Notes: generated by a model from the letters alone, not told the origin. A stretch of DNA of 64,000 nt from Candidatus Poribacteria bacterium (GCA_965232535.1 CBDDPW010000023.1:736798-800797); one strand, 5' to 3'; counted from the stretch's first letter, positions 16,551 to 39,418 are shown. Numbers and translations: made by a program.

Positions 16551-19500
16551 ATGAAACTGAAATTATCGGGAAATCCATTTCTTATGATAAAGCATTGTAT
16601 ACGTGCCCGGATAGGCTTGAGCCTACCCGTCAAAAGACCGCAATTCTGGTTGCGTACACGAATACCTACATTACTTTTTCAATTGAATTGCCTCCTTTTT
16701 TTTGTGGCTGTATCTACTTCTACCTGGGGGCAATTCTTCGAATCTCCGCCGCGAATTATTGATGATGCCAATGAAGACACTGTGTTCAGCCCTAACGGGG
16801 ATGGGATACAAGACAATCTAATTATTAGTTTCGTCACGAATGGATTTACGGGCGATTACCGGATTATGATTGATGTGCACGGACCCGGTGCGGTTGGTCG
16901 ACCGGATGGAGTGTTCGACATTGATGATGACTGGGTGGTCTTAGGGGCAGTTGGCCCGGGCCCATCGGAGTTTTACCCTGAGAATAATCCGAAAATCGTA
17001 CATCAAGAATGGGACGGAATGGACCGTGCTCCAAGCCAAGACACTCCGCCCAGCGCACGCCCGGTCGGCCCCGGCAATTATGAGATTCGTGTTGAGACAG
17101 ATGCCTTCGAGGATGGCGCGATAGATATAATTAATCCTACTTATCAGTCATCCACACTGGTTGCCGTCGTGGACATCGATGCGCCGAAAATCTCAAGTAC
17201 AGTTTCCCATCTATTTTTCTCACCTAACAGTGACGCGATCAAAGATACCACCACAATCACCTACGCGCTGTCCGAGCATCTTTCCGATCTCAGCTTGGAA
17301 TTTGCCAATCTTGAAAATCAACCCGCGATAAAGCTGACTCAGATAACCCGTGGTCGACAATCGTTCACTTGGAGTGGACTCGATGGGCTTAGAACACCAC
17401 TTATTGATGGAGTGTATAACCTCCGTCTTCGTGGGGTTGACAATGGCGGCAATGTAACCACATTTGATGTCGGAGCAGTTCAGATTGACACGAAAGCTCC
17501 CACCTTTACTCAGATTACCCCGAGCCGGGACGCCTATTTGAAGGTGTCGATCACCGCCATTGAAGTGGAATTTAACTTGGCGGAACAGGACAGTCCCATC
17601 AACTTTGACTCGTCGGTCACCACTATTGGTTTGCAGAATGCGGGCGGAGAGACTGTCAGCGGCATAATACGAAGTGATGTTACTAACAACCGTCTAACGT
17701 TAGCATTGGACAACCCGCTGGACACAATATCGGAGAACGGTTCTTATACCGCTGTCATTCTTGTAGCAGATGAAGCCGGAAATCAAGCGGCAACCGAGAG
17801 TAGCTTCAACTTTGATACGGTACCGCCGACTCTGCAGCGGATTCGTTCGAATTACGGCAATTTTCCGCCAAACGGCTCCGTGAACACGAAAATTACGTTC
17901 GTGGAAGTGGATTTGGACGATAACATTGATGATGGATTAAATTTGGCAGCTTCGACGATCGCGCTGAATGGCCCAAATGGTGCAATATTTGGAAATCAGA
18001 CGTTTGGCGGCGATAGTACGTTGCGCTGGAATCTGGAAGCTCCCATAGCGGCTGACGGCTCGGAAGACGGCATTTACACCATTACGATAAGTGTAGCTGA
18101 CCGCGCCGGGAATACTGCGAATTTCGGTGAAATATCCTTTGTCTACGACACTCAAGCTCCCAGATTGGATTCGCTAACGCCAAATCTTGAAGACAGTTCG
18201 TTTCATCTGGGGGCAGGTACAATCTACCGTAGCCAACCGCTGTTACAAGTCGTTGCGGGCTTCGACGATGGTGCTGGAAGTGGAGTTGACTTTGCCTCGA
18301 GCCGCCTCGAGATCGTCAGATTGGACGAAACAGGATCTGGTAATATCTTTCTTACGGGGACCCGCCACGTGAATCCTACTGATGGCACGTTGGCTTTTCT
18401 GTTATCCCAACCGCTTGAAAACCAAGACGGAACTCAAGATGGCGCCTACACCATTCGCGTTAGTTCGGCAGATGTCGCTGGAAACACAAGCACAAGTCGA
18501 GTTGACCTCATTTATGACACTGAGCCACCAACAATCGTGTCAGTTGCACCGGAGCGAGATGCAACAGTTACGACACTATCTCAAGTGACCTTGGTCATGG
18601 ATGACAGCATGAGTGGCGTCGATTTTGCGAACACTATCTTGAAGCTGGTTCGAGACGACGTGGAAATCCGTGGGACTTCTAGTAACAACGGAAAGGATAC
18701 GGAAGTCTTAACATTGTCTAATCCCCTGGTAACCGATGGTTCGGATGATGGGGAATATAGGATTGAAATCACCACTGTAGATCGAGCCGGGAATGCGAGT
18801 GACCTAATTGAACGTCGATTTTACTTCGTTTCTCAACAGCCCGAGATTCGATTGAACGCGCCTGCTACAGGAGTGATTAATGAGTTCACTACAATTGATG
18901 CACAGTTTGTAAACTACATCGGCACCGGTATTGACTTTTCGCCCGAAAAATCTAGCGTGATTGTGACCCGTCCCGACGGCACAGTGCTTCCGTCGGCATC
19001 TGTGGAAGTAGACAACGTCAACAATCGGCTCATTTGGATGGCGAAGACGCCACTACCGCGCGACGGTTCTGCCGATGGCGAGTATACAGTCCGTGTAAAC
19101 TATGAAAACCTCGTCGGACAGAACTTCACTCAAGATTTTGCGTTGATATTTGACACACAGCTTCCAGGAGTCGTCCAAACTACGCCTGCCCCCGGAGCGC
19201 GCGTTTCACGATTGGGAGCGGTAACCGTAGAATTCACCGCCGACCTTAGCGGTGTGGATTTCGCTGCCGCTCAGGTGCGGTTACTTGATCCGAATGGAGT
19301 GCCTGTAGGAACAAACCGGTCGGACAATGGGGTAGATGCCGTTACACTTCGCATCCAAGATCTCCAAACTTCGACGATTGAAGGTGTCTATATTATCGAA
19401 GTTACCCCCGCCGACCGGGCCGGAAATGTCGCAGACAGTCCGTATCTGTCGAGCTTCACCTTCGCTCCCCGCGGGCCATCAATAACTCTTGAGCCAACCG

Positions 19501-22500
19501 ATAACGCCCCGACGAACCAGCTACGTCAGATTACGGCCACCCTCCAAGATTATGTCGGTCCCGGAATTGATTTTGACTCCGCTGAAACGTCGATATCTGT
19601 GAGGGACGCGCTCGGGTCAGTCGTTACAGCTCAGCCGATACAACCCAACGCTGCCGAACTGCAATTGACGTGGACAGTGTTATCACCCTTGCCTCGCGAC
19701 GGTTCCGCTGATGGAACTTATGAAGTCATGGCTCGATTCGTAGAGTCGCCGGATCTGGGAACGACTTCTCCCACGACTTTCGAACGAACCGCCACGTTGG
19801 TTTTTGACACTCAACCGGCGCACATTTTGAGCACAAACCCAACTCGAAATGCGCGGATAACACATTTTGAACATGCTACAATTGAGTTGGGGGATGATTT
19901 AAGTGGCGTGGATTTCAATAACACCTCGATACAGTTGGTGGATCCTTCCAACAACTCAATTCCAACGAATATCAAGAATGATGGAGAAAAGCGAATCACG
20001 CTTTCTTTTGACGCGTTTAAGACGGACGGTTCAGCCGATGGGGTGTATCGTCTCGAAATCACACCGGTAGACTTGGCAGGAAATGTTGGTGGACTCTCAG
20101 CCGTTGAGTTTGTCTATGCTACGCTCGCACCTGAAATCGAGATGTTGACGCCAGCCGACGAATCTGTCGTCAATCGCGTTCCGGAAATTCGTGCCCTCAT
20201 TCACGACCATTCCGGCGAAGGGATTGCCCTCAAAAAATCCATGATTAGCTTATCGGGTCCGGATGGCGATGATGTGCATGGCGTTCGTGGAGATGATGAA
20301 GAACGGACCCTAACGCTGAGGTTGGGATTACCAACGGATGGCTCGGCTGATGGCACGTACACGGTCAATCTGAATCTTGTTGATAACCTCGGCATTGAAG
20401 CTGCCTATACGCAACATTTTACATATGACAGCGTCCCGCCAAAGATTGTCACGGAATCACTCCCGCCCCGCGAAAACGTGATTGACGATCATCGGATAAT
20501 AGTAGAATTTGAGGTTACGGATGCGTCTCCGGGGCTAGAGGCAGGGTCTGGTGTGGATTTTGATGCGACATCGGTCCAGCTTCAAGACTCTAATGGCGAA
20601 CTTATCGCCGGTGAAATGAAAGATGATGGTGTAAGCGTGATAACTTTCACCTCTGCCGAGTTAGCGAGCGTCGGTGTCTATACTTTGACAATAGTGGTTG
20701 CCGATCGTGCCGGCAATCTCAGCGTCCCGCAACAATTTACTTACAGAGACGTGATTCTCCCGCCGCGCGTAGTGTCATTCTCGCCGCCGGCGAAATCAAG
20801 ACTGAATCGTTTGACAGAGATTTCTGCTGTGATAGAAGATCGATCAGGCAGGGGAATCGACTTCTCGTCCACAGGTTCGACCATTGAACTCCGTAGTCCC
20901 GATGGCGTGCAGGTTGGAGGAATTGTTACCGACAACGGTGTAGATACCTTGACGTTCCATTTGATTGATCCGCTTTTGACTGACGGCAGTGAAGATGGCG
21001 TTTACACGATTGTCGTTCAGCCGATGGACAGGCTTGGAGTCAGTGGGGAAGTCCGACAAGTCGCAATTACCTATGATACGCAGAGTCCACGTGTCCAATC
21101 GGTTTCGCACATAGACATGACGGAGAATGTATCCCGCGTCAAAGATTCGGTGAGGCGCATTGAGGTGGAACTTACTGAGGCAAATTCGGGGATCGATGTT
21201 GGAAATTCATATGTCAAGTTGTGGCGTCATACGGAGAGCGATCGAGTTCTTGTCCCGGGCACACTTGATTATGATGACGCATCGTTGTTGTGGTGGCAAC
21301 TGGACTCTCCGCTTGCACGGAGTGGGGAAGACGATGGAGAATATACGGTTGAGGTAGTGGCGTTTGATAATGCCGGTAATGTAGAAGAAAATGAATACAG
21401 ACTTCTCTATGATACACAACCGCCCGTGATTGGCTCCATGCAAGTCTACGTGGTAGCCGGAGATGCGTTAGAACTTGATACAGATCTTGCTCCGAGCAAT
21501 AATCGAATAATTATTGAATTTGAGGTGACTGATGAGTCACCGGCGCTAGGTGCTGAATCTGGCGTCGATTTTGATGCGACGACGATTCAGCTTCAAGATT
21601 TCAATGGCGAACTAATTGCTGGTGACAAGAAAGATGATGGCGAAAAAAAGATTACCTTCACTTCAGTCGAACTAACGAGTGTAGGTGCTTATACCGTGAC
21701 AATAACCGCTGCCGATTATGCTGGCAATGTCAATGTCGGCGTTCCGCAGCGATTTACCTACAGGGACGAAATTAAGCCGCCGCGTGTAGTGTCATTCTCA
21801 CCGCCGGCGAAATCAAGACTGAATCGTTTGACAGAGATTTCTGCTGTGATAGAAGATCGATCGGGCAGAGGAATCGATTTCTCGTCCACAGGTTCGACCA
21901 TTGAACTTCACAGTCCCGATGGCGTGCAGGTTGGAGGAATTGTTACCAACAATGGTGTAGATACCTTGACGTTCCATTTGATAGATTCGCTTTTAACTGA
22001 CGGCAGCGAAGATGGCGTTTACACGATTGTCGTTCAGCCGATGGACAGGCTTGGAGTCAGTGGGGAAGTCCGACAAGTCGCAATAACCTATGATACGCAG
22101 AGTCCACGTGTCCAATCGGTATCGCACATAGACATGACGGAGAATGTATCCCGCGTCAAAGATTCGGTGAGGCGCATTGAGGTGGAACTTACTGAGGAAA
22201 ATTCGGGGATCGACGTTGCAAGTTCACACGTTCAGTTGTGGCGTCATACGGAGAGCGACCGTGTTCTTGTCCCGGGCACACTTGCTTATGATGACGCATC
22301 GTTGTTGTGGTGGCAACTGGACTCTCCGCTTGCACGGAGTGGGGAAGACGATGGAGATTATACGGTTGCAGTAGTGGCGTTTGATAATGCCGGTAATGTA
22401 GAAGAAAATGAATACAGACTTCTTTATGATACACAAGCACCCGTAATTGGCTCCATTCAAGTCTACGTGGTTGCCGGAGATGCGCTAGAACTTGATACGG

Positions 22501-25500
22501 ATCTTGCTCCGAGCAATAATCGAATAATTATTGAATTTGAAGTAACTGATGAATCACCGGCACTCGGTGCTGAATCTGGCGTCGATTTTGATGCGACGAC
22601 GATTCAGCTTCAAGACTCCAATGGCGAACTAATCGCCGGTGACAAGAAAGATGATGGCGAAAAAAAGATTACCTTTACCTCTGTCGAGCTAACGAGTGTA
22701 GGTGTTTACACCGTGACAATAACCGCTGCCGATTATGCAGGCAATGTCAATGTCGGCGTTCCGCAGCGCTTTACCTACAGGGGCGAAATTAAGCCGCCGC
22801 GTGTAGTGTCATTCTCGCCGCCGGCGAAGTCAAGATTGAATAGTTTGACAGAGGTTACTGCTGTAATAGAAGATCAATCCGGGACGGGAATCGATTTCTC
22901 GCCCACGGGTTCTACCGTTGAACTCCGTAGTCCCGATGACATGGTGGTAGAGGGGATTATCGTTGATAATGGGGTAGATACCATGACGTTAAGGTTGCTT
23001 GACCCGCTATTGACTGACGGCAGCGATGATGGTGTTTATGTAATCACTGTTCAACCTGTTGACCAGCGCGGGATAAGTGGAGAAGTGCGGCAATTCTCGG
23101 TAACTTATGATACGCAGAAGCCGCGCGTCCAATCAGTTTCTCACATAGATCTGACGGCGAATGTATCGAACGTCAGAGATTCGGTAAGGCGCGTTGAAGT
23201 TGAACTTATTGAGACCGGCTCGGGAATAGACTTCGAGCGCTCGTATGTTCGGTTGTGGCGTCATACTGAAGATGAACGTGTCCTCGTCCCGGGCACACTT
23301 GACAGTGACGGGTCGTTACTATGGTTGCAACTGGAAAATGCACTCGCACGCAACGGCGTCGATGATGGCGCGTATTCGGTGGTGGTAAGCGCGGTTGATA
23401 ATGCCGATAATGTGGAAGAGAAAGAATTCGTGTTTCTCTATGACACGCAAGTTCCCGGAATTGATTCCGTTAAAGCCGCTGCGGCTGCCGGAAATACACT
23501 TGAGATTGGTACGGGAAGTGTCTCCACAGTCGTTGGGGTGCCCATTCATCAAATTCATTTAGCCTTTTCTGATGGTTCAGGCAGCGGAATAGATGTCTCT
23601 CAGACTACGGCCCAACTTATTCAACCCGATGGGACGGCGGTAGCTGCAACGCAACAAGATGATGGGATGGTAACCGTTTCCTTAAGATTTAAACCGCTCC
23701 GAGATGATGGGACGGACGACGGACGCTACTTTGTACGAGTGACACCGATAGATTTCTCGGGAAACACTTATACAAGTCCGTTAGAGTTTCAGTTCCTCTA
23801 TTCAACGCGGAAACCCGAGGTTGTTTCGACCACGCCAGCCGAACAAGAGTCTGTTAATTTCTTGGACTCGGTTAGTGTGGTACTCATCGACCATAGCGGC
23901 GAAGGAATCGACTTCGATCGTTCTACAGTTGGTTTGTACAATGCCGAAGGCATCTTGGTTGAAGGCCGCCAAAATGCCGATACGGGAAGTTCGGTGATAA
24001 CGTGGGACTTAGACCGTCCGATGTCGCGCGACGGCGTTGATGATGGAGAGTATTCCATACGGCTTGTAGCTTTCGATGGAGCGGGCAACGAACTTAGCTC
24101 GTCCGCGACAATCCTTTACGATTCCCAAATACCGCGGATTGTCTCGGTTTCTGCAGACACAATACCATCGACATCCATTCCCGCCAATGAGCTTGTCGTG
24201 CTTAATCGGTCATTTTCGCAGATGAGGATCGGGCTCTCTGATGAACATGCTGACGGAGAAAAGATTCCGACATCGGGGATCGACTTTGCCGGTACGATAG
24301 TTCAACTGGTTGGACCCGACAATGAACAGATTGGAGTCACTGTAAGTGATGACGGTGAGACACAGTTAATTGTAAACTTCACACCGCTAGTGAAACCTGG
24401 TGCCTACACGCTTGAAATTATACCGCGCGATCTTGCGGGAAATGCTTCTGGGCATCCAATTCAGTATAAGTTCAGTCTCAATTTGGCTAAACCGCGCGTA
24501 GATTCTGTGGCAATCGGCGGACGCAGGGCTCCCGTTGCCTTTGTAAATCAACTTGACAAGATTACCGCCAAACTGGTTGACCCGAATGGAGTTGGATTGG
24601 ACCTGACCACCGGAGGTTCGGGGCTGAGTGTGATAGGTCCTAATGGTGTGGTCGACGGTCTTCAAGAAGGCAATGGAGTTGATGAACTGGAGTGGACACC
24701 TCTGCACCTACCGGAAGATGGCACGGCTGACGGACGCTATACAGTGACCATTACGCCCGTAGACAACCTGGGCCTTTCCGGCGCGCCTGCAAGATATGAG
24801 TTTATATTGGATACGCAGCAGCCCGAGTTGGTTGGTGTTGACCCAATAGATCTTACACACGCAGTGTCTTACATTGGCGGGCAAATATTCCGGATTTCCG
24901 CCCAAGTTGGAGATGTCGGTCCCGCCGGTCTAGACATCTCGGCACAGTCAATTAAACTACAAGATTTTAATGGTGTCTTCATTCCGGCGGATTTGACGAC
25001 CGATGGCGATAGTCAAATTTTGTTAACGTTGGCTCAACCGTTAGCTACAAACGGCGGCGATGATGGAGAATACTCTATTGTGATCGACTTGAGCGATCGA
25101 GCTGGCAATGCGTTTAAGATTGAGCACACTTTTGTCTATGATACGCAAGCCCCAACTCTCGTGGATACTGATCCGGCAGGTGATCTGATTCGAGACGATC
25201 TCACTTCAATTGTCGCTCACCTTAGCGATAATGGAGGTAGTGGCATTGACTTCGCCGTTTCCCAGTTACTGCTTTTCGATCCAAACGGAAATCAGGTGAA
25301 CGGACAGTTGGGCAACGATGGGGTCGGACAACTTATTTTACTGCTTGATGAATTGGCGGAAGATGGCAGTTATCGTATTCGCGTGGTGGGTGTTGACAGG
25401 GCTGGCAATGGGACTGATGCACCATTCGAAAGAACTTTCCTCTTTTCCACGAACCTGCCCACTGTCGTGTCGACTGTGCCGGTAACGGCTCCTGCTGGTA

Positions 25501-28671: not shown

Positions 28672-30975
28672 ATGAGTGTCCTAATGCTCTTGTTGATATC
28701 AATTTTGCCAGCGCTCCTTATTGCCGAGGGGACCGGCCGAATTAACGGGTACTTGTATGACAAGGTCACCGGAGAACCGTTGCCCTATGCCAATGTAATG
28801 TTGCAAAACACTCAGTTTACCGCAACAACCGATGTGCGTGGATATTATGTATTGAGCGGCATACCGCCGGGTAAATACAAGCTAATCGTTTCAGCGACAC
28901 GATTTGAGCGGGCCGAAAAGGAAATAGAAGTTCAACCCGGCGGCGAAATGAGATTGGACGTTGAGGTCGCGCCGGTAGCTATCCAACTCGATGAAGTGGA
29001 GGTGACTGGCGAAAAAACGCGATTCAAAGAGGAAGTGGAAATCAGCCGTACGAATATCAGTTCCCAAGAGATCGTCAATACCCCATCATTTGTTGAAGCC
29101 GATGTATTTCGGACAATACAGCAACTCCCAAGCGTTTCTTCACAAAGTGACTTTAGCTCTGCGCTGGTCGTGCGTGGTGGCAGCCCCGATGAAAACCTGA
29201 TATTGGTTGATGGCGCGGAGATTTATAATCCATATCATCTTGTCGGGCTATTCTCGACGTTTAACGCCGATACCATCGCGGATGCGAAATTCCTCGCTGG
29301 CGGTTATCCCGCAGAATACCCGGGCAGACTTTCATCTATTTTGGACATTACATCAAGAGAGGGAAAGCAAGTCAAAGGAAAGGGAGAAATCTCGCTGCTC
29401 AGCAGCAAGATGATGCTGGAGGGACCGTTCTATAAAGGCGCTTGGATTATATCCGGTAGAAGGACCTATTTTGATCTCATCGCCGACCGGTTCAATCAAG
29501 CGAGGGGAGAAGATCAGGATTGGAAATACTATTTCTGGGACGGCCAAATCAAGATTTTTAGCGATCTGAATTCCGAAAACAGGTTGACGTTTTCGACCTT
29601 CGACGGACGCGATGTCTTGAAGTTCTTCCTTGATGAGGAGAGTTCTGATGAAAAGACAGATTTTAGCTGGGATTGGGGAAATAACGCCCCCAGTCTAAAG
29701 TGGCGGTTTGTACCGAACGCAACGTTCTTCTCTGAATTTGTACTGACACACTCGAATTTTGATTTCGACTTAAGTCTTATAAACACGGAGATTGACAGTG
29801 ATGGAAACGAGGACGAAACCATCGCCAGCGCCATCAATCAAATTCGGGATTTTTCAGTCTCGGAAAAGTTAACATGGTATCTCTCTCCTAAGCACACCCT
29901 CAAAATGGGAGCGGCGATTAAGAATCTAAGCATGAAATTTGACTTTCATGTGGATAACGTCAATTTCTTTGACATCAAGCAAAGCCCTTACGTTCTCAGC
30001 GCTTTTGTTCAAGATAGATGGAAAGTCAATGACCTGCTCTCGTTTCAACTGGGATTGCGGGGTTCCAAATATGAGTTACATGATAAAATCTATCTTGATC
30101 CGCGACTCGGATTCAAATACTTAATGTCGGAAGATTGGGCATTCAAGGGGAGTTGGGGTAGGTTCAATCAATTCCATTTCACCGTCAATGACGAAGATCA
30201 GGTGTTGCAGATTGTCGATTTCTGGTTGCCGGTACCTGAAGAATTCGATGCCATACGGAATCAGCACTTCATTCTAGGAATAGAGAGATGGTTCAATCCG
30301 GGGTTTACCGGTTCTATTGAAACCTATTATAAACCTTACGGCAACGTCCTCACAAACAATCCGGATAACGATCCGGGCATTGAGTTTGACGAATTTATTG
30401 CCGGCACGGGACGTGTTTGGGGGTTGGAACTTTTTCTGAAGAAAACCACCGGTAAAGTTTCAGGCTGGTTTGGCTATTCATACTCTAATGTTGAAAGAAA
30501 ATTTGATTTCAACGGCGATGGGATGGTCGAAGAAACTGAAAATCAAGCATCCGAGATTTATGCGCCCAAATACTCAAGACCACATTCGCTCAACCTGGTC
30601 GCCAGTTATCAGGCGAGCAAGAGGAATCGGATTTCGTTGTCCTGGACCATGTCAAGCGGTCAACCGTACACACCGGTCGTGGGCAAAGTCTATCATGAGG
30701 ACGGCGCGCTGGATGATCCCTACGCGCGAGTCATTAGTATTCAGGGTAGGCGGAATTCCTCCCGTTATCCCGCCTATGTTCGAGGAGATATCGCATGGAT
30801 TAGAGACATCTCACCCTTTGGAGTAAACGGGAGATTTAAGCTTCAGGTCATCAATTTTACGAATCATTATAACTATCTGGTCTATCTTTGGAATCATGAT
30901 AGGTCACCTTCGGAAGTCCGAGCAATCAGCATGTTCCCGATCATCCCGTCTTTTGGATTAGAGTTTGAGTTCTAG
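28672..30975 (+). CDS. TonB-dependent-receptor-like outer-membrane protein with an N-terminal carboxypeptidase-regulatory-like domain and a plug domain
   Basis: GRINGYLYDKVTGEPLPYANVMLQNT...TDVRGYYVLSGIPPGKYKLIVS (CarboxypepD_reg-like). VFRTIQQLPSVSSQSDFSSALVVRGGSPDENLILVDGAEIYNPYHL (plug). Terminal ...SFGLEFEF. Start moved to the ATG at 28672 (signal peptide MSVLMLLLISILPALLIAEG). Confidence 0.8.
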   Translation: MSVLMLLLISILPALLIAEGTGRINGYLYDKVTGEPLPYANVMLQNTQFTATTDVRGYYVLSGIPPGKYKLIVSATRFERAEKEIEVQPGGEMRLDVEVAPVAIQLDEVEVTGEKTRFKEEVEISRTNISSQEIVNTPSFVEADVFRTIQQLPSVSSQSDFSSALVVRGGSPDENLILVDGAEIYNPYHLVGLFSTFNADTIADAKFLAGGYPAEYPGRLSSILDITSREGKQVKGKGEISLLSSKMMLEGPFYKGAWIISGRRTYFDLIADRFNQARGEDQDWKYYFWDGQIKIFSDLNSENRLTFSTFDGRDVLKFFLDEESSDEKTDFSWDWGNNAPSLKWRFVPNATFFSEFVLTHSNFDFDLSLINTEIDSDGNEDETIASAINQIRDFSVSEKLTWYLSPKHTLKMGAAIKNLSMKFDFHVDNVNFFDIKQSPYVLSAFVQDRWKVNDLLSFQLGLRGSKYELHDKIYLDPRLGFKYLMSEDWAFKGSWGRFNQFHFTVNDEDQVLQIVDFWLPVPEEFDAIRNQHFILGIERWFNPGFTGSIETYYKPYGNVLTNNPDNDPGIEFDEFIAGTGRVWGLELFLKKTTGKVSGWFGYSYSNVERKFDFNGDGMVEETENQASEIYAPKYSRPHSLNLVASYQASKRNRISLSWTMSSGQPYTPVVGKVYHEDGALDDPYARVISIQGRRNSSRYPAYVRGDIAWIRDISPFGVNGRFKLQVINFTNHYNYLVYLWNHDRSPSEVRAISMFPIIPSFGLEFEF

Positions 30976-30985: not shown

Positions 30986-31981
30986 GTGCAAATGATTAAA
31001 ATCCTGCTAATTGTGCTTTTGTCCACGATTTGTCTCTCATGTGAACGAGAACTGGAAGTTGCCGATTTCAAAGATGACTTCGGAAATTACCAACCGGAAT
31101 TAAAAGTTACGGGGCGGCTTCGGCAGGATAATCCGGCAGATTCCATCATTCGGATAATAAGAACCGAGGCGATTACGGATTCTGATGTATTCGACGGAAT
31201 CGATAATGACGGAGATGGGCGAATCGATGAACACGATGAAACCCTTCCGCTTATCCAGGATACGACGGCTATCGTCACAGTGACAAATTTGAACTCCGGT
31301 GTAGAATACGAATTTCAGTATGTTGAGCTAGCTGATAGGATTGTCATTTGGTATCACGAGGGACCCAACGGCGAGCAAACCAGAAATGAAATCCCCGATG
31401 GAGGCTACAAACCAAAGTCAAACCGTTTTCAGGTAGAACTATACGCACCATATCGAATAGAAGTCTATTCCAAAGCGTTCGATAAAACGGTTACCGGCGT
31501 AACAACGGTTTATCCTCCGGTTGAATTCATCGATATTGACACACTCTCGACCTTTGATGACGACCACATGACACTAAAGACCAATGATGAAAAGACAATC
31601 TATTGGAAATCGGATTTGAATGTAACTTCGTACTTCGTGACGGTTGAAATATCGGAGCGCAAACGTGAGGATACACCAGAATCTGGATTCGTCCCTTCTA
31701 CTTCATCTTCATCATCTAGGGATAACGATCTGACGGAAAAGCACGGTGTTTCGATTGGAAAAGAAAACTTCTTTGTGAGCCGGGAATCAAATGCTGGCAA
31801 AGTCCTGAGAATTACGGTTGAAGCGCTCAGTCCGGAATATGGAAGTTATGTCTTTTCATCATTGCCATTGAATGATGCGCGAAGATCCAATCTTCGAGAT
31901 CAGGACGGGAAACCCGTGATGGGCGCTTTTGGGGCAAGCGCGGCGAGAAGCATATTTGTGTCGATAGAAGAATCAAGGTGA
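30986..31981 (+). CDS. Putative lipoprotein, possibly DUF4249-like, with an acidic DNDGDGRIDEHDE (Ca-binding-like) motif
   Basis: VQMIKILLIVLLSTICLSC signal/lipobox-like leader. AGGAG lies 7 nt before the GTG at 30986. Position right after a CarboxypepD_reg-type TonB receptor is typical for DUF4249. The family assignment is from memory only. Confidence 0.45.
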   Translation: MQMIKILLIVLLSTICLSCERELEVADFKDDFGNYQPELKVTGRLRQDNPADSIIRIIRTEAITDSDVFDGIDNDGDGRIDEHDETLPLIQDTTAIVTVTNLNSGVEYEFQYVELADRIVIWYHEGPNGEQTRNEIPDGGYKPKSNRFQVELYAPYRIEVYSKAFDKTVTGVTTVYPPVEFIDIDTLSTFDDDHMTLKTNDEKTIYWKSDLNVTSYFVTVEISERKREDTPESGFVPSTSSSSSRDNDLTEKHGVSIGKENFFVSRESNAGKVLRITVEALSPEYGSYVFSSLPLNDARRSNLRDQDGKPVMGAFGASAARSIFVSIEESR

Positions 31982-32281
31982 AACCGACCGTTCCTGCATG
32001 GGAAGTAGCTTTACAATCCGATAACCAACAATTCAATCTCCATCGTCCACACGACGTGGAGTTACATTTAAACCAAAAATCATTTGTACACTGCGGCAAG
32101 TTCGGTTTCCTTACTGAACCCGCATTTATCCATTCTCGTAGGTGCGATTTGAAAGGGATCGCTATCGTGCGGGATTTGCTATCGCACTCGTTATTCACTA
32201 GTTTGATCCTTATCCAGTCGCTTGATGGCACCTAACCGAAATATGTGCAAATGTGAATTCAATTGACTATAGGAGGAAAAA

Positions 32282-32962
32282 ATGCGATTAACAAGATGTC
32301 ATAGCTGTGTGGTGCTTTTAATGCTATCTGCAGTGGTTTGGACCGGGTGTGCCGCGAAAATCGTAGATGATTCACAGCTCCAGTATCTCGCCCCGGAATT
32401 TACGGTTGGCTCGATCTTCGATCACGGTTTGGGCTTACTGCCCGTGGTTGCAGGGCAAGGACAGGAAGGACTGCGCAGGCCGTTGGCAGCAAAACTTGAA
32501 GCCCATCTTACCGCTCAATTGCCGGAGGGAAGATTCTATGGGGCAATTCAGATGCTCGATCTGATTAACGAAGCGAACTTGACTGAAGCCTATGCACAGA
32601 TGATTGGTGACTATGAGCAAGCCGCGATCCTCAATAAGAGAACGCTCCACGAAATTGGTAAAGCGACAGGAATTAGATACCTCCTGCACGTGAAACTCTT
32701 GGATCAATCTCGTACAGAACGACTTGCAAAGGCTCTTCTATCGGACGATATCGTCAGTTTGGAGGGCAAAAACGTCACCATCTTCGGACAGGTTTGGGAT
32801 TGCGGCTTGGGCGACGTTGTTTGGGAAGGTACGGGCGAAGTTGCCGCAGAGGCTGAAGTTGAATTCCAATATGTAAAGCATGACATTGACTACCTCGTCA
32901 ATGTGGCGGCTCAATCTTTCTTGAACCACCTTCCGGGCGTTCAAATTCCGCGCGTCAATTAA
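32282..32962 (+). CDS. Hypothetical lipoprotein
   Basis: Leader MRLTRCHSCVVLLMLSAVVWTGC (lipobox WTGC). AGGAGG Shine-Dalgarno sequence. No family recognised. Confidence 0.6.
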   Translation: MRLTRCHSCVVLLMLSAVVWTGCAAKIVDDSQLQYLAPEFTVGSIFDHGLGLLPVVAGQGQEGLRRPLAAKLEAHLTAQLPEGRFYGAIQMLDLINEANLTEAYAQMIGDYEQAAILNKRTLHEIGKATGIRYLLHVKLLDQSRTERLAKALLSDDIVSLEGKNVTIFGQVWDCGLGDVVWEGTGEVAAEAEVEFQYVKHDIDYLVNVAAQSFLNHLPGVQIPRVN

Positions 32963-32996
32963 GCATGACTTAACTATCTGAAGGAGGCATGTACCC

Positions 32997-33671
32997 ATGA
33001 GAATCACAAGCACTACCAATCAATCTTTTAATACGGCTTGGACGTTAAGCATCGGAATCTATTTAACCGTGTTGTGTTTTATATTCTTCGGTTGCGGCGG
33101 GTCAACCCGGAACGATCCATATCGTATTCCTGAACTTAAGCCGACAGGTTCCGGCAAAACTACGGTTCCCCAAAAATCCGTTAAGCAACCGTCATCATTA
33201 CCGCCGAGTGCTGAGATTAATCGAGGTCAGTTGCGTCCTTTGGTTGAAACCTTCAAATCACAACAGCCGCAGAATTTCAATGCACTTAACGCTACCACGG
33301 TTGGTAGACCATACAGTTTGACGATTGTTTCCAACTGCGACTTGGATGTTTTGAAGGGATTCATCGCGAAACGCTGGGCACCAATTGTGTCTTTGCGTAC
33401 TAGCGGTCGCTCACGACTTTGGGCTATGGTCGGATACAGTCCGGCCGGTGAGGTTATACTGGAGAACCCGGTGGACAATCGAAGGAGAACCTTGTCGGAA
33501 GAGGAATTCAAAACTCAATGGGAATTGACATCGGATAGCAGATACGCCCTAATAACACCGGGCAGATTAGACCAAGCGAAAGTCCAGATGGCGTTAAATC
33601 GCTATCTTCCTCAATCCAAAGCGAGTCAAGTTAGAGTCACTCGGTCGTTGCAGGGGCGCGCTCGTAACTGA
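32997..33671 (+). CDS. Hypothetical lipoprotein
   Basis: Leader ...IGIYLTVLCFIFFGCGG (lipobox FFGC), then a Pro/Ser-rich linker and a ~120-aa globular C-terminus. No family recognised. Confidence 0.55.
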   Translation: MRITSTTNQSFNTAWTLSIGIYLTVLCFIFFGCGGSTRNDPYRIPELKPTGSGKTTVPQKSVKQPSSLPPSAEINRGQLRPLVETFKSQQPQNFNALNATTVGRPYSLTIVSNCDLDVLKGFIAKRWAPIVSLRTSGRSRLWAMVGYSPAGEVILENPVDNRRRTLSEEEFKTQWELTSDSRYALITPGRLDQAKVQMALNRYLPQSKASQVRVTRSLQGRARN

Positions 33672-33783
33672 CTGTGGTGGTTCTTGACCCCGAATCCTGC
33701 TAGGAATGATGTGAAGTCCATCATGAATCAATCCGTAGAGATTCTATGCGAGTCTGTAGTCCTATAGGAAGGAGGTTGTGCGG

Positions 33784-36700
33784 ATGACGAGAAATGCCGC
33801 CCTAGGCACTACGTATGTGTTAATGTTAAGCCTCTGCTCTATTTGGGGCGAATCTTGGGCAGGCGAGGAGGAACTTTCGGAGATTCTCGTTGGACAAGAT
33901 TTGCGCTACGTAGAGGTTGGCGGTAATTATCTGTGGTTTGCAACCAGCAACGGTGTTAGTCGATACAATACCGACACCAAGTCATGGGATGCCTTCACCA
34001 TCAAAGATGGGCTAATCAGTAACGAGGTAAACTGCATTGCCATCGAGTGGAAGGAAGGGGTTTTTCGTAAGACTCCAACCCAGCGTGTCTGGTTCGGCAC
34101 TGACTCCGGTCTGTCGGTATACGACATGAGTAATAACAAATGGCAGAGTTATACCGTCAAAGATGGTTTGATTGCGAACAAAATCGAGTGCATCTCTGCG
34201 CGCCGTGATTGGATCTGGGTAGGTACTGAACAAGGCGCAAGCGCCTATCAACGCAAGAAGAACCGCTGGCAGTCCCATTCGACATTTTCAGGCATCGCGT
34301 CTCCTTCGGTAACAGCCATCTATCACGATTCCGCCTATGTTTGGATTGGCACCAATAACGGTTTAGCTAGGTACAATTATAAGTACAAACAGTGGGAACA
34401 CTTCACTCGGGAAAGTAGCTCGTGGATTGGCACGAGGGGCGGCAATCGCGGTGTGCGCCGTTCTCCACTGCCAAGCGACCAAATTAACGACATCCGAGGC
34501 AGCGGGGAAATCGTTTATATTGCCACGGGTAACGGGTTTTTGAGAGTTACAAACAAGAAATTCCGGAGTGGAGTCGATCTTGCCCGAGCCGACAAAGCGT
34601 ATTCGAAATTAAAACTCCCTCAGAAATACAACGCCGATCTGCGGACGCGAAGCCGACGACTGTCACGCGGCGCTAATGCTGCACAGCTACGCGCAGCCGA
34701 AGCAGAATATAGTAGAGCGCAGAAATCATTCTCTCGCGCCGAGGCGGAGGCCTGGGCTGCCCTCGGTTGGCAAATTTACCAGCCATCGACGGTCGTCCAA
34801 GACAGGGAAAAACGGGGGCGGATATCGGATCGGATTCTCGCACTGCAAATTTCCGCGGGTCAGGTATGGATGGCAACCAACACAGGGCTCTTAAAGTTCG
34901 ATACAAAGATGCAGAGTTGGGATTGGCATCATCAAGAGATGGGGCTGGTGTCCGATCGGATTAATTCTCTGGGAATAACGGGAAACACAATCTGGATTGC
35001 CACCGATCATGGACTTTCAAGATTTGGAACACTCTCGGGCAACTGGATAAACTACGTGGCTGAGCGTGCACTTCCGTCTGCCGACGTATTGGCGATTGGT
35101 GAAGATACCGAAGGTGTTTGGCTTGCAACTCCCAAGGCGATAAGTCTATTTAATCCAAGCACGGAACGTTGGAAAACCTACACAAACGAAGAAGGTTTGG
35201 GTGGAGGAAGGGTCGCGTGCCTAGATGTTGTTGGAAATTTTGTCTGGGTTGGGACCGACCAAGGTATTTCACGCTTTAACAAATCCGATCAGACATGGGT
35301 GTACTTCCGAGCAGCGAAGAGCGGGTTGGTGGCCGATGAGATTACTACGACCTTAGTCGATGGAAAACAGATTTGGATCGGCACTCACGTCGGACTCAAC
35401 AGATATGATAATACTACAGGAGAATGGACCGCCTTTTCTACACGTTTAGGGCTGGCGGGCAATCGAATTACCGACCTCGCCGCTGATCCAAGCTATGTGT
35501 GGGTTGGCACCGAAGCAGGGCTGTCCCGGTACAACAAATCGGATGGTAGTTGGCACACTATTCCCGAATTGGGAACGGTTCCGATTCTTGCAACTGTCCA
35601 AAATGATAGAACGCTTGCAGTTTCGACAGAGCATGGAATTTATCTCCGTGATGACGAATTGGGTTGGCGTCAGCTTCAAATTAAACCGGAGCATCCCAGT
35701 GATACCATAGTTCTTGACGGGAAACTTCTCTGGTTGGGCGGATGGCGGCACATAGTGCGGCATGATCTGCAATCCGGTCAAACCCGCAAGTTCACCGAAG
35801 ATGACGCTCAAGGGCTTTCTCGTGCGCGAGTAAATGACATCAAAAACTCACTTCGTTATATTTGGGTCGCAACAGATGGAGGGATATACAAGTATAACAA
35901 GGAAGATGGGACGTGGTGGAGTTATGCACCAAGTCGGGAACGAGGCACCACGGAAGTGCTGGCTAATCGAAACATTTTGGCGATTGCTGTGAGTGATGAA
36001 TTTCTCTTTTTTGGCACTCCAAATGGGATTAGCAGGTACGACAAAGTAGCGGATTCATGGCTGAATTATTCCGTGAATGACGGCTTAATCCATCGCTATG
36101 TTTCTAGCTTAGCTTGGGACGGAGAATTTCTGTGGGCGGGGACGCATGGCGGGCTAAGCAAATACAGTTTGGGCAGCGATCTGTGGACTAACTTCACACG
36201 TACCGAGGGGCTGTGTGACAATCGCATAAATGCTATTGTCGCAGACGAAAATGTGATGTGGATTGCTACGCTAGCAGGTGTTTCACGCTTTGACACACAT
36301 GCTGGGACTTGGCAGACATTTACTACCGAAGATGGACTTCCGCACAACGTTGTCTGGACGGTGGCAATCGATGGTGATAAGGTCTGGTTTGGCACAAACG
36401 ATGGCGCGGCAAGGTACGACCCTACAGAAGACAAGTGGCAAATTTACACGACGGTTGACGGTTTGATTAACAACCTCGTCAATTCTATCAATATTGACGG
36501 CAAGTATACCTTCCTCACGGGCCCTTCCGGGGTAACGATTTACGACACAGAGATTGGTTCCCTATCCCCATATTCACGCAAAGACGGTTTAGTCGCCAGC
36601 GAAGCCAAGAGTATAGGATCCAAGGAGAAGTATCACTGGATTGGCACCATCGACGGTATCACGCTCTACAACCAGATAACCGATCTCTCTCGGGATTTTA

Positions 36701-38091
36701 CGGTGGCAGAGGGATTGCCTTCCGACAACATCCGGGTTGTTGCTGTCGATGAAGATGAAATCTGGTTCGGCACGGACGCCGGGCTCGCTCGTCATCATTG
36801 GAAGAATGGCGTCTGGACGGTCTATTCGGAGGCGCCCGCGGAGGTTGCCTCCACTCCCTTGGATTTAATGAGTAACAACGTGAAATCAGTGGTTTCTGAT
36901 GGTGATGGTTTGTGGGTTGGAACCCGAGTTGGATTGGCGCGTTATGACAAAATCTTGCATACTTGGCATGTCGCCGATTTGAGCTATGATCCGCTCAGAA
37001 ACACGGAGATTACTCAGATAGTTGAACTTGAAAGAACCCTTAAAAGAACCGTCGATAACACGGCCGAGGCTGTCGAGGAGGCACTGCGAGCAACATCGCC
37101 CACGACAGAACAAAAGGTTTACGTTGAATACGATCCTGTTGTGGCGCAAGAGAAAGCGGTCCAATTCCTCCATGAAGCGATAATTCGGAAGACCCCCATG
37201 CCGAACGATCCAATCTTCCCGTCACCATTCTTGGACCTCAAAATTGCCTTACCTTCGCACCCTGTAGTTCGTGTCATCGAACCAGTTTTCAGTACTCTCT
37301 GGATTGGCACAGAGGCGGGAGTCATCGTTTATGATAAGGCGCATGAGGAGGCGATAGCGACGCATCCCTTGCTTCCGTGGGTGCGGGACATCAAATTTCA
37401 TCAGGGCAGGATTTGGGTGTTGTGCGATGACATGATTGCCGTTTATGATTTTAAGGCAGATTCATGGACACTCATATCCGGACGGCAAGTAATAGAGCAA
37501 ACACGTGCTGGGACTTCCATAGGCTACACTGAAAAAATTGAAGAATCTTCCGATGACTGGGGAATTGTCGATTGTACAGCCATGACGTTTATGGATGACC
37601 AAGTCTGGATCGGACGTGAAAACGGCTTAAGGATTCTTAAAGCAGACTTCCCACGATTCGAGTCGGAATCCGAAATCGACATCCCGGAATACCTTCGGGA
37701 GGCAGAAATCACCGCGCTCGATTCCGATGGACTCAACACGTGGATCGGGACCAGGCATGGACTGTATCGATACCATCTAAAAACGGGCGCGTGGACGCCC
37801 TACACGGTTCTAAACGGTATCGCCGGTAATGAGATTAGTACCATTTCTGCAGGTGAAAAGCATGTTTGGGTTGGCACGGCAGGTGAAGGGCTTAGTTGGT
37901 ACGACAAATCATTACGGGAATGGGTGAGTTTTAGGCTTGAAGACGGTGTAGCGGACAACAACATCCGCAGCATTGCGCTGGATGGGAAATACATTTGGAT
38001 TGGTACGTTCTCGGCGGGAGTTTGCCGTTATGACTTGACGACTGAACTCTGGACGACCTACCAGACAGCAGATCAGATCGCGCGAAGATAG
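33784..38091 (+). CDS. Secreted 1,435-aa protein built almost entirely of two-component-regulator-propeller (Reg_prop) beta-propeller repeats; no output domain
   Basis: Dozens of repeats of the form W[IV]GT..G[LI]SR[YF][ND]......W..[YF]T..DGL. Signal peptide LMLSLCSIWGESWA. ATG at 33784 lies 8 nt after AGGAGG. No Y_Y_Y, HisKA, HATPase or receiver-like sequence seen. Confidence 0.8.
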   Translation: MTRNAALGTTYVLMLSLCSIWGESWAGEEELSEILVGQDLRYVEVGGNYLWFATSNGVSRYNTDTKSWDAFTIKDGLISNEVNCIAIEWKEGVFRKTPTQRVWFGTDSGLSVYDMSNNKWQSYTVKDGLIANKIECISARRDWIWVGTEQGASAYQRKKNRWQSHSTFSGIASPSVTAIYHDSAYVWIGTNNGLARYNYKYKQWEHFTRESSSWIGTRGGNRGVRRSPLPSDQINDIRGSGEIVYIATGNGFLRVTNKKFRSGVDLARADKAYSKLKLPQKYNADLRTRSRRLSRGANAAQLRAAEAEYSRAQKSFSRAEAEAWAALGWQIYQPSTVVQDREKRGRISDRILALQISAGQVWMATNTGLLKFDTKMQSWDWHHQEMGLVSDRINSLGITGNTIWIATDHGLSRFGTLSGNWINYVAERALPSADVLAIGEDTEGVWLATPKAISLFNPSTERWKTYTNEEGLGGGRVACLDVVGNFVWVGTDQGISRFNKSDQTWVYFRAAKSGLVADEITTTLVDGKQIWIGTHVGLNRYDNTTGEWTAFSTRLGLAGNRITDLAADPSYVWVGTEAGLSRYNKSDGSWHTIPELGTVPILATVQNDRTLAVSTEHGIYLRDDELGWRQLQIKPEHPSDTIVLDGKLLWLGGWRHIVRHDLQSGQTRKFTEDDAQGLSRARVNDIKNSLRYIWVATDGGIYKYNKEDGTWWSYAPSRERGTTEVLANRNILAIAVSDEFLFFGTPNGISRYDKVADSWLNYSVNDGLIHRYVSSLAWDGEFLWAGTHGGLSKYSLGSDLWTNFTRTEGLCDNRINAIVADENVMWIATLAGVSRFDTHAGTWQTFTTEDGLPHNVVWTVAIDGDKVWFGTNDGAARYDPTEDKWQIYTTVDGLINNLVNSINIDGKYTFLTGPSGVTIYDTEIGSLSPYSRKDGLVASEAKSIGSKEKYHWIGTIDGITLYNQITDLSRDFTVAEGLPSDNIRVVAVDEDEIWFGTDAGLARHHWKNGVWTVYSEAPAEVASTPLDLMSNNVKSVVSDGDGLWVGTRVGLARYDKILHTWHVADLSYDPLRNTEITQIVELERTLKRTVDNTAEAVEEALRATSPTTEQKVYVEYDPVVAQEKAVQFLHEAIIRKTPMPNDPIFPSPFLDLKIALPSHPVVRVIEPVFSTLWIGTEAGVIVYDKAHEEAIATHPLLPWVRDIKFHQGRIWVLCDDMIAVYDFKADSWTLISGRQVIEQTRAGTSIGYTEKIEESSDDWGIVDCTAMTFMDDQVWIGRENGLRILKADFPRFESESEIDIPEYLREAEITALDSDGLNTWIGTRHGLYRYHLKTGAWTPYTVLNGIAGNEISTISAGEKHVWVGTAGEGLSWYDKSLREWVSFRLEDGVADNNIRSIALDGKYIWIGTFSAGVCRYDLTTELWTTYQTADQIARR

Positions 38092-38167
38092 ACCACTCGT
38101 GCGTATCCAAATGTTGACCAGAATGAAGCCGGCGAGTAAAAGTTCGTGAAAGGCGCACAAGAGCAGG

Positions 38168-39418
38168 TTGGGATGGCGGAAGATGAGACGTGGGGATACA
38201 ACGCATTCTCGATCGGCCGAACGTAAACAAGCGCCCGATATTTTGGTGACATCTCCTTCCCATTCAAACGCTCTCTTGAGCCAGCGGTCACGCAGCTTCC
38301 AAATCACCCTCACCTCATGGCTGCTGTCTCTGTTGTGTAACGTCTTGATTCTTTATCTTTTGACAATTCTCCCGCAACGCCACCCGGAGATTTCCGATGA
38401 TGCGCTACAGGTCGACATGATCAACGTCCCGACTGAACGGTCTCCCAAAGCGCGTGTTTCCCCACGTTCGAGATTGGCACGCTCCAGCCAGCCCATCAAA
38501 ATGACTCCACCACAGCAGCGCTCCACTCCGTCACCTGCCGTACCTCTCGTCACGTACGCACGTCCTAATGAACGAGTACTACACAAACCTAACCTATCAT
38601 CCCCCGACGAGACAATGCCGGTAGAGGACAATAAAATTAGCGTTGATTTGAACGCTCGCTTAACCGATGCCATTCCAAACGCATCTGTGCGTCCCAACGT
38701 ATCATCTGGACGAAAGAAAAGTCTCCCTGTTGACACTCCGGCTCGAAACGGGGGTTGGCTGGAGAAGCTTCGGGGAGAAATCGGAGCTCCGCCGCAGGCT
38801 CAGGTGAGCGGATCTGGCAGAGAAATACAAGGTCATTATAACGTTGCTACCGTGCAGCACGAGGATGCTGCCGATACTGTCCGAACCGAATTATTAAGCC
38901 GACTAGTTGATGCGATGAATCGCTGGACGAAAGTGCACACTAAACTTCTCCCGGGGGACACGCCATTAGCGGACCCGGAAATTCAGCGTATTCCACTAGT
39001 GTACATAACAGCGACAAGTGCATTCGCCTTTTCCGAACAGGAGCGTGCAAATCTGAAATCATACCTTCAAAATGGCGGGACACTCTTTTTTTCCGACCTC
39101 TCACAGGACTGGGGAAATAATGGCGCAATTGCAAATTCCATCCGCTTCGAACTATGGAAAATTTTGGATCTAAGGGCAGACCTACGTCCCGTCGAATCGG
39201 GCGAACCAATCTGCAGTAGTTTCTTTGAATTCAAGAAGGGACCGCCGCTGGTAGATAAGAAACGGGGACGATTCTATGTACTGCGACTGAATGGACGGAT
39301 TGCCGTGTTCTACGATGCGGCAGGGTTAGGCTTGAAATGGATGGAAAATGACGCCGACGAAAAGTGGATGCGGTGGGGAGTGAACCTGATTGTGCATACC
39401 CTTGCCTCTTGGAGATAA
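38168..39418 (+). CDS. Membrane-anchored protein with a Pro-rich spacer and a C-terminal DUF4159-like domain
   Basis: TM segment ITLTSWLLSLLCNVLILYLLTIL. P/S/R-rich region of ~120 aa. C-terminus IPLVYITATSAFAFSEQERANLKSYLQNGGTLFFSD...GRIAVFYDAAGLGLKW...RWGVNLIVHTLA resembles DUF4159. Start is uncertain. Confidence 0.6.
   Translation: MGWRKMRRGDTTHSRSAERKQAPDILVTSPSHSNALLSQRSRSFQITLTSWLLSLLCNVLILYLLTILPQRHPEISDDALQVDMINVPTERSPKARVSPRSRLARSSQPIKMTPPQQRSTPSPAVPLVTYARPNERVLHKPNLSSPDETMPVEDNKISVDLNARLTDAIPNASVRPNVSSGRKKSLPVDTPARNGGWLEKLRGEIGAPPQAQVSGSGREIQGHYNVATVQHEDAADTVRTELLSRLVDAMNRWTKVHTKLLPGDTPLADPEIQRIPLVYITATSAFAFSEQERANLKSYLQNGGTLFFSDLSQDWGNNGAIANSIRFELWKILDLRADLRPVESGEPICSSFFEFKKGPPLVDKKRGRFYVLRLNGRIAVFYDAAGLGLKWMENDADEKWMRWGVNLIVHTLASWR

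Follow-up and report, generated by a model that had tools for sequence, protein, structure and literature searches.

An envelope gene block of 23 kb occupies positions 16551-39418 of a 64,000-nucleotide stretch of DNA from a Candidatus Poribacteria bacterium (GCA_965232535.1 CBDDPW010000023.1:736798-800797), the whole of which we refer to as the window. An initial annotation, made from the sequence alone, had read this block as one dedicated and divergent system for cargo attachment or surface assembly, reminiscent of type IX secretion. Our analysis suggests a different account: it is rather probable that the block brings together, in one lineage only, four independent envelope modules, in one of which a giant immunoglobulin (Ig)-repeat adhesin is a type IX-style cargo held or shuttled by the PorQ-like outer-membrane barrel encoded next to it. 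This adhesin/barrel pair looks like the only attachment-like unit of the block.

Poribacteria are abundant, uncultured symbionts of sponges. A giant adhesin that occurs across the phylum together with its own PorV/PorQ-type barrel offers a specific candidate for the chief adhesin of their surface and for the device that anchors it. The NCBI taxonomy treats Poribacteria as a candidate phylum and does not place it in the Fibrobacteres-Chlorobi-Bacteroidetes (FCB) group, and reviews confine the type IX system to Bacteroidota or to the FCB group (PMC11205867, PMC12398890). In the literature that we searched we found nothing that links Poribacteria to type IX secretion or ties such sorting parts to DUF4159 and Reg_prop proteins, and likewise nothing relevant on PorV2; the PorU-, PorV- and PorQ-like proteins and tail-bearing cargo described below come from a phylum that this literature does not list for the system.

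Gene content and gene order of the block

Counting open reading frames (ORFs) of at least 200 amino acids (aa) within 16551-39418, we find eight, all on the plus strand. The block had been said to hold nine consecutive genes, a number that does not survive the count and that the accompanying list, itself of eight, did not reach. The co-directionality then proposed is confirmed, as is the general targeting to the envelope: translations read directly show an N-terminal hydrophobic signal, a lipobox-like Cys or a transmembrane anchor in 8/8 proteins. The intergenic gaps measure, in order, 95, 437 (347 from a TTG start), ~+10/-11, 300, 34, 106 and 76 nucleotides (nt), and five of the seven are under 120 nt, in keeping with the short spacing originally described. 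Two short ORFs lying between the genes (28333-28536 and 31978-32235) show weak or patchy conservation and were left out of the gene count. The features of the block are as follows; numbers with the prefix L denote related loci.

16551..27185, plus strand: giant Ig-repeat surface protein of 3544 aa, the cargo of module 1 (Pfam Big_13 255 bits, Big_5 133 bits, Big_3_2 and others)
26844..27182, plus strand: C-terminal sorting-type domain of this adhesin, its last ~113 aa, an Ig-like beta-sandwich of the FlgD_ig / type IX secretion system (T9SS) C-terminal domain (CTD) type
27281..28234, plus strand: outer-membrane barrel of the PorV/PorQ family (NF033709), 317 aa, the proposed anchor or shuttle of module 1
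28304..28347, minus strand: palindromic element, a partial inverted copy at the left edge of the cassette (blastn against L029:19463-19506, also L011 and L012)
28672..30975, plus strand: TonB-dependent receptor with an N-terminal CarboxypepD_reg domain, first gene of the cassette
30986..31981, plus strand: 338/331-aa lipoprotein with an acidic Ca-binding-like motif and a lipobox-like ...ICLSC, second gene of the cassette
32070..32272, plus strand: the same palindromic element, like a miniature inverted-repeat transposable element (MITE) or repetitive extragenic palindrome (REP), at the right edge of the cassette (81-87% identity to L029:19378-19507 and L015:9822-9951)
32282..32962, plus strand: 226-aa outer-membrane-type lipoprotein with a predicted PelC/LpoB/CsgG-like fold (AF2 pLDDT 81.5)
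32997..33671, plus strand: 224-aa lipoprotein with a lipobox-like leader
33778..38091, plus strand: secreted Reg_prop multi-propeller protein, 1437 aa, first gene of module 2
38168..39418, plus strand: membrane-anchored DUF4159 protein, second gene of module 2, with a short N-terminal cytoplasmic tail, a transmembrane helix, a Pro/Ser-rich linker and a C-terminal DUF4159 domain

About 40 loci were compared, gathered around homologs of the barrel, the 226-aa lipoprotein, the Reg_prop protein and the DUF4159 domain. The eight window proteins were located in them by tblastn, and the loci were read with flanks of up to 10 kb. Five arrangements were seen, given here with protein identity to the window.

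L001/L013, L011, L012, L022 (four genomes; Reg_prop 81-92%): the full window order
L014-L017 (four genomes; Reg_prop 77-83%): the window order minus the receptor and the 338-aa lipoprotein
L008, L019-L021, L035, L009/L024 (Reg_prop 39-59%): Reg_prop and then DUF4159; the upstream flank, of up to 10 kb, shows neither adhesin nor barrel nor lipoproteins
L093, L095, L096, L100-L102, L104, L105, L113, L121 (ten metagenome contigs; DUF4159 29-44%): Reg_prop and then DUF4159, module 1 genes being absent
L002-L004, L088, L089/L090 (barrel 60-65%): the adhesin/barrel pair, with unrelated genes next in order (for uracil-DNA glycosylase and NadA, among others)

Only at Reg_prop identities of at least 77% does the whole order persist, and it is lost at a Reg_prop identity of 64% or less and a barrel identity of 65% or less. 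On one chromosome of 7.03 Mb (OZ240244.1, carrying L002 and L023) the adhesin/barrel pair lies at ~4.29 Mb and the Reg_prop ortholog at ~2.82 Mb, 1.4 Mb apart. Conservation of gene order, which the initial annotation had itself named as a test of its proposal, thus fails beyond close relatives, and the block splits into separate pairs. Because the order is lost in this way and the modules recur in separate contexts, we regard the 23-kb block as a juxtaposition specific to one sub-lineage, its four modules being the adhesin/barrel pair, the receptor with the 338-aa lipoprotein, the 226-aa lipoprotein and the Reg_prop/DUF4159 pair. A shared strand and shared envelope targeting did not equal a single system here; it was comparative gene order that divided the block.

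The adhesin and its neighbouring barrel

The proposed domain structure of the giant protein, Ig repeats ending in a T9SS-type domain, is broadly supported by the profile searches, which find Big_13 and Big_5 repeats and, at the C-terminus, a probable domain of the FlgD_ig/T9SS type. FlgD_ig scores 29.4 bits on the whole adhesin (Pfam cutoff 27), whereas the type B domain CHU_C reaches 21.4 bits, below its cutoff of 27; Por_Secre_tail gives 34 bits summed, with its best stretch internal rather than C-terminal. The tail matches the C-terminal region of NF033707 (PorU) at positions 963-1094 (E 5e-11), and a profile of six orthologous tails finds the CTD of Porphyromonas gingivalis PorU, 6za2, at residues 1061-1154 (E 2.4e-5), the one solved structure that this profile recovers at E <0.1. 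A pattern typical of sorting domains runs through these tails (WPxPL... hFSFDVN... LSIYDxxGDLV... WNLKNxxGxxVARGIYIFRLEA... VGKxLVIE). Orthologs of the adhesin, 2237-3885 aa in length, are encoded upstream of the barrel gene in L001-L004, L011-L017, L022 and L088-L090, and among the distant ones the tail is 55-66% identical, compared with 32-38% for the whole protein and 60-65% for the barrel. No tandem DNA repeats were found in the giant gene.

At the other end of the adhesin the translation reads ...LLFFVAVSTSTWG/QFF, a Sec signal peptide of the kind required of type IX cargo. The leader (16551-16730) ends in ...STSTWG/QFF, and the predicted cleavage would leave an N-terminal Gln. A 'Q-rule' has been described for Bacteroidetes (PMC5837995), which this N-terminal Gln, a single case, recalls.

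The barrel belongs to the PorV/PorQ family, as first assigned, with 117.2 bits on NF033709 (cutoff 90) over residues 28-315 of 317. Of the named equivalogs, PorQ (NF033711) scores best with 66 bits, followed by PorV2 with 35.5 and PorV (NF033710) with 31, so that from these scores the window barrel appears more PorQ-like than PorV-like. A profile of the barrel finds Flavobacterium johnsoniae PorV (6h3i_F, E 1.4e-10) and no FadL among PDB sequences, and no match to PorP/SprF (TIGR03519) was reported in the NCBIfam search. Its best Pfam match is UPF0164, with a weak match to Toluene_X/FadL. The AF2 model has 14 strands at a mean pLDDT of 51.7, which is low confidence, and a Foldseek search with this low-confidence model puts FadL and PorV at the top (TM-score 0.42-0.45). 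The best 120 homologs listed are 60-89% identical, and those with a source name come from Candidatus Poribacteria; 'PorV/PorQ family protein' is already the name that public annotation pipelines give to barrel homologs, and an exact-sequence look-up returned no record for the window barrel or for protein P0158.

Every poribacterial locus anchored on the barrel holds the adhesin/barrel pair, which often stands alone and persists while both flanks change. The idea of a dedicated cargo-attachment system is supported in part: it fits the adhesin/barrel pair, kept down to 60% barrel identity, and does not extend to the eight genes as one system. An FGE-sulfatase gene near the pair in L089/L090 was considered as a possible PorK and dropped, the surrounding genes being unlike the porKLMN set.

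A chance find in a metagenome-assembled genome (MAG) of Gemmatimonadaceae (L064:10741-15634) places an 852-aa Reg_prop protein, which matches PorZ weakly and gives another weak match, of the FlgD type, at its C-terminus, directly before a PorV/PorQ-family barrel. That barrel is fused to a C-terminal region with weak TPR-type matches, and a further tail-bearing protein is encoded downstream. Judged by these matches, the arrangement presents a motif similar to the adhesin/barrel module.

PorV and PorQ hold their partners via C-terminal domains. The model that we propose for the adhesin is drawn by parallel with three cases, PorQ holding PorZ, PorV holding PorU and the PorP-like SprF holding SprB. 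The adhesin would be exported by Sec, its conserved C-terminal Ig-like domain would serve as a type IX-style sorting signal, and the adjacent PorQ-like barrel would bind this tail and carry or hold the adhesin at the outer membrane; the translocon and a PorU-like sortase would be encoded elsewhere. Anchoring of cargo by barrels has been described (PMC9143113, PMC11285876, PMC5562754), including that of adjacent type B cargo by PorP-like barrels, as with SprF and SprB (PMC9143113). What distinguishes tails that are cleaved from those that are kept is, according to PMC11285876, not known.

The cassette, the lipoproteins, the propeller module and the flanks

The second gene pair of the block begins with a TonB-dependent receptor (CarbopepD_reg_2 65 bits, Plug 35 bits, TonB_dep_Rec_b-barrel 56 bits), correctly recognised in the initial annotation. 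The 338-aa lipoprotein that follows has no Pfam family match. A DUF4249 (PF14054) identity, put forward for checking, is rejected, for no match appears even at E <=5 while a positive control (L078:4890-5498) gives 75 bits. Receptor and lipoprotein occur together, being present in L001/L013, L011, L012 and L022 and absent from L014-L017, and the GC contents of their genes (0.461 and 0.446) are lower than the ~0.50 of neighbouring genes.

Remnants of a dispersed palindromic element bracket this cassette in the window in opposite orientations. The element is intergenic, ~190 nt long and MITE/REP-like, with the termini AAAAAGCCCGTC...GACGGGCTTTTT and two inner hairpins, and copies were found at L029:19352-19527, L015:9813-9951, L011:3943-4001, L012:3632-3689 and L043:315-451. 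In Poribacteria genomes it often lies at module boundaries and also at unrelated loci. The flanking copies were found only by blastn against related loci, a repeat search across the cassette not having recovered them. In the closest species-representative genome found (L022:2049-4892, Reg_prop 92%) an extra ~2.4 kb with no counterpart in the window lies between the barrel and receptor genes, which marks the barrel/receptor boundary once more as an insertion site. The receptor and the 338-aa lipoprotein would accordingly form an insertable uptake cassette.

All three small proteins (338, 226 and 224 aa) carry a lipobox-like leader and none has a family match. The AF2 model of the 226-aa lipoprotein finds PelC in a Foldseek search (5t0z, E 1.6e-7, TM-score on the target 0.64-0.71), and then FlgT, LpoB and CsgG, a fold type of outer-membrane lipoproteins that face the periplasm. 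The search returned 42 homologs of this protein, and those at 68% and 46% identity sit in unrelated neighbourhoods, for example among MoxR/ABC/VWA/DUF58 genes. For the 224-aa lipoprotein, searches of Pfam, NCBIfam and PDB sequences gave no match, and the only loci in which it was detected are those of the close relatives L001, L011-L017 and L022. Both proteins may be lineage-specific additions.

Module 2 pairs the Reg_prop protein with the DUF4159 protein. The former was rightly assigned (Reg_prop 75.9 bits, PorZ_N_b_propeller 67 bits); it has a signal peptide and two non-propeller inserts and ends directly after its last blade, with no tail domain beyond, in agreement with the reported lack of a C-terminal sorting domain. 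Its 21 distinct blade motifs, typically spaced by ~42 residues, suggest about four propellers, and four is probably the number. Full-length relatives of this protein come from MAGs and complete chromosomes of Poribacteria. Only Reg_prop-type repeats were found in it, with no Y_Y_Y, kinase or receiver/regulator domain and no transmembrane segment after the propellers. Among solved sequences it comes nearest to the periplasmic domains of Bacteroides hybrid two-component sensors (4a2l, 3v9f, 3va6, 3ott); PorZ is not among its PDB sequence matches, nor is there a match to NF052228. We considered the protein as an ortholog of PorZ and rejected this, given the missing sorting tail and the closeness in sequence to the Bacteroides sensor domains.

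The DUF4159 (PF13709) assignment also stands, with 82.2 bits over residues 226-412 against a gathering score of 25.9. The PDB relative of the domain, 4i66, is an uncharacterised structural-genomics entry. The window-type subfamily comprises ~17 clusters at 50% identity, and the members examined (P0285-P0297) share one architecture, in which a transmembrane helix and a long low-complexity linker precede the C-terminal DUF4159 domain. The DUF4159 gene lies directly 3' of Reg_prop in L008, L009, L011-L017, L019-L022 and L035, and further in L093, L095, L096, L100-L102, L104, L105, L113 and L121. Reg_prop orthologs at 35-92% identity are followed by it, and the pair is kept at a DUF4159 identity of ~30-90% and lost for more distant DUF4159 proteins; the Reg_prop orthologs of L018 and L023 have no DUF4159 partner. 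In the searched literature neither family has an experimentally known role, and the only mention of DUF4159 is in the Pfam database paper. Module 2 could be a periplasmic pair, in which the Pro-rich linker of the inner-membrane-anchored DUF4159 protein would reach into the periplasm towards the Reg_prop protein. We infer that the two probably form a complex that binds a glycan or an envelope component and is tethered to the inner membrane.

Opposite-strand housekeeping genes flank the block, a NAD(P)H-hydrate repair enzyme at 14443-16047 and a FetB-type permease at 39462-40208, and the remainder of the 64-kb window is central metabolism, with no secretion genes seen. A scan of the window ORFs found no SprA/Sov, PorK, PorL, PorM or PorN, and no C25 peptidase or PorU-like ORF in the 64 kb; all ORFs other than the adhesin and the Reg_prop protein are shorter than 800 aa, and the larger of them were assigned to non-PorU families. 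The window therefore has no ORF that resembles PorU, as had been observed.

Three further features of the window were seen outside the block. Beside fetB, a gene for a FetA-type ABC ATPase (40226-40900, minus strand) is broken by an in-frame TAA at a position that is a Lys codon in 6/6 relatives with a close FetA ortholog, and is either a pseudogene or the result of a sequencing error. An IS3-family transposase gene with HTH_Tnp_1, HTH_21 and rve domains lies near the left end of the window (1099-2208). A corrinoid-dependent methyl-transfer cluster at 47138-52590 encodes a B12-binding protein, a RACo-type reductive activase, an MTHFR-like protein and a pterin-binding protein.

Rival readings and comparison with known systems

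Paralogs of the Reg_prop protein (~25% identity) led to a second, strongly conserved poribacterial locus, which bears on how the block is to be read. All of its parts are present in L010 (5944-24035), L026, L027, L031-L033, L036, L037 and L045, and it is partial in, for example, L030, L041 and L046. The parts are:

three tandem Reg_prop genes, ~1350 aa each
a 652-aa protein, 82-99% identical between genomes and with no family match, whose signal peptide and C-terminal Phe mark it as a putative outer-membrane barrel
a secreted DUF4159 protein (249 aa, 177 bits), encoded on the opposite strand
a PorV2-like barrel (PorV_fam 112 bits, cutoff 90)
a 2085-aa PorU-like protein with Propeptide_C25 and Peptidase_C25, whose tail passes TIGR04183 and whose C-terminal ~225 residues match PorU

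A further CTD-bearing protein was found in L023. The absence of PorU, true of the window, thus does not define a PorU-less system, since a PorU-like C25 peptidase adjoins a second PorV-like barrel elsewhere in the phylum. DUF4159 and the ~1400-aa Reg_prop proteins emerge as two uncharacterised partner families that recur beside type IX-like parts.

Were all eight genes one dedicated and divergent attachment or assembly system, working without PorU, the Reg_prop protein would act as PorZ and the receptor and lipoproteins as extra subunits. The co-directional genes with mostly short gaps, the presence of the whole order in four other genomes and of an order that lacks just the cassette in a further four, and the 67 bits of the Reg_prop protein on PorZ_N_b_propeller speak for this, as does the second locus, where Reg_prop paralogs and a DUF4159 protein adjoin PorU- and PorV-like genes. 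Yet the order dissolves at Reg_prop identities of 64% or less and barrel identities of 65% or less, the adhesin/barrel pair can lie 1.4 Mb from the Reg_prop ortholog on the same chromosome, close relatives dispense with the receptor and the 338-aa lipoprotein, and the 226-aa lipoprotein occurs in unrelated contexts. The Reg_prop protein, moreover, has no sorting domain, its nearest relatives are Bacteroides sensors and PorZ is absent from its PDB matches; a single system is quite improbable. Another proposal, that modules 1 and 2 both belong to a phylum-specific type IX attachment machinery in which Reg_prop and DUF4159 are accessory to PorU/PorV/PorQ-like proteins and adjacency in the window is meaningful without being obligatory, we hold to be unlikely. 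It draws on the recurrence of the second locus with all six parts in L010, L026, L027, L031-L033, L036, L037 and L045; since that locus also holds Reg_prop and DUF4159, the association appears twice, independently, and a double propeller, PorZ, belongs to the P. gingivalis attachment complex (PMC11285876). The link is, on the other side, one of adjacency only, the window-type (membrane-anchored) and second-locus (secreted) DUF4159 proteins are only ~16-26% identical, the window-type pair has no type IX-like neighbour in most genomes, and neither family has an experimentally known role, DUF4159 figuring, in the searched literature, only in the Pfam database paper. In its boldest form, which we regard as doubtful and for which the second locus is the main evidence, Poribacteria, lying outside the FCB group, would run their own version of type IX-style sorting, with a PorQ-like barrel dedicated to one giant adhesin and with Reg_prop and DUF4159 proteins, membrane-anchored or secreted, as previously unrecognised accessories that work with PorU/PorV-like proteins; the adjacency of modules in the window would then be a real functional link. 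It is, finally, highly improbable that the barrel is a small-molecule channel of the FadL/UPF0164 type with no relation to protein sorting, the giant protein being an ordinary surface protein exported by other means and the adjacency a conserved accident. UPF0164 as the best Pfam match, the weak Toluene_X/FadL match, FadL at the head of the fold search and the missed PorQ and PorV equivalog cutoffs would fit such a channel, whereas the barrel passes the NCBIfam PorV/PorQ family cutoff and its sequence profile, run against the PDB, picks up PorV but not FadL, the two genes stay together although the genes on either side differ, the best-conserved part of the adhesin is a tail homologous to the PorU CTD, and the phylum also has a PorU-like peptidase and further tail-bearing proteins.

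Several observations weigh against our preferred reading of independent modules with a type IX-style adhesin/barrel pair. The isolated adhesin tail scores 24.5 bits on FlgD_ig, slightly below the Pfam cutoff of 27, and TIGR04183 was not reported for it. The barrel falls below the equivalog cutoffs of PorQ (220), PorV (250) and PorV2 (325), and the confidence of its structure model is too low to settle the fold; PorV-like barrels occur also in bacteria that have no type IX secretion, and UPF0164 was defined on Treponema. The scan for type IX core genes covered the 64-kb window of the source genome, and the type IX route of adhesin export is assumed. Elsewhere in the phylum Reg_prop and DUF4159 genes stand beside PorU/PorV-like genes, which argues that module 2 could be part of that machinery nonetheless. 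Modules 1 and 2 are adjacent across eight genomes of the window's sub-lineage (Reg_prop 77-92%), and within that sub-lineage there may be a local functional link between them. Promoter and terminator scans of 26500-40300 gave counts not above those of shuffled controls and hence say nothing on operon structure.

Measured against the PorU-PorV/PorZ-PorQ complex of P. gingivalis, the window shares a protein with a putative Ig-like sorting domain encoded beside a PorV/PorQ-family barrel, predicted at low confidence to have 14 strands, an adhesin tail homologous to the PorU CTD and a barrel that scores best on PorQ among the named equivalogs; the adjacency of porU and porV in Bacteroidota is matched elsewhere in Poribacteria by the PorU-like peptidase next to a PorV-like barrel. 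It differs in that the PorQ-like barrel is paired with an Ig-repeat adhesin of 3544 aa rather than with the double-propeller PorZ, in that the window locus has no sortase and in that the host phylum lies outside the FCB group (NCBI taxonomy). The propeller protein had been offered as a counterpart of an attachment-complex subunit, a proposal that is not supported here: PorZ combines a double propeller with a sorting domain, whereas the window protein has probably four propellers and no sorting tail, and it is unlinked to the barrel in other lineages.

The remaining modules each recall a different system. With the Bacteroides hybrid two-component sensors, the source of its closest solved sequences, the Reg_prop protein shares the beta-propeller repeats, but it has no Y_Y_Y, transmembrane, kinase or regulator part, carries about twice as many propellers and is partnered by a DUF4159 membrane protein. 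The 226-aa lipoprotein shares, in a confident model, the fold of PelC/LpoB/CsgG-type lipoproteins, whereas it is not a member of their sequence families (LpoB 16 bits, cutoff 110) and no Pel, curli or penicillin-binding protein (PBP) genes lie near it. The cassette is like the Bacteroidota pairs of a CarboxypepD_reg receptor and a DUF4249 lipoprotein in its receptor architecture and in the lipoprotein gene abutting the 3' end of the receptor gene; a receptor homolog from Bacteroidia (L078, 31% identity) is followed by a true DUF4249 gene, whereas the window lipoprotein does not match DUF4249 and the window pair is a dispensable cassette.

A further parallel for the adhesin/barrel pair is found in SprB-SprF and PG1035-PorP (PMC9143113). 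The window barrel differs from SprF and PorP in belonging to the PorV/PorQ family, with no PorP/SprF (TIGR03519) match reported, and the adhesin tail is of the FlgD_ig / type A kind, CHU_C (type B) falling below its cutoff. What the pairs share is a very large, repetitive adhesin whose gene directly precedes that of a dedicated outer-membrane barrel, and the proposed logic would be the same, with the barrel anchoring its own cargo independently of PorU.

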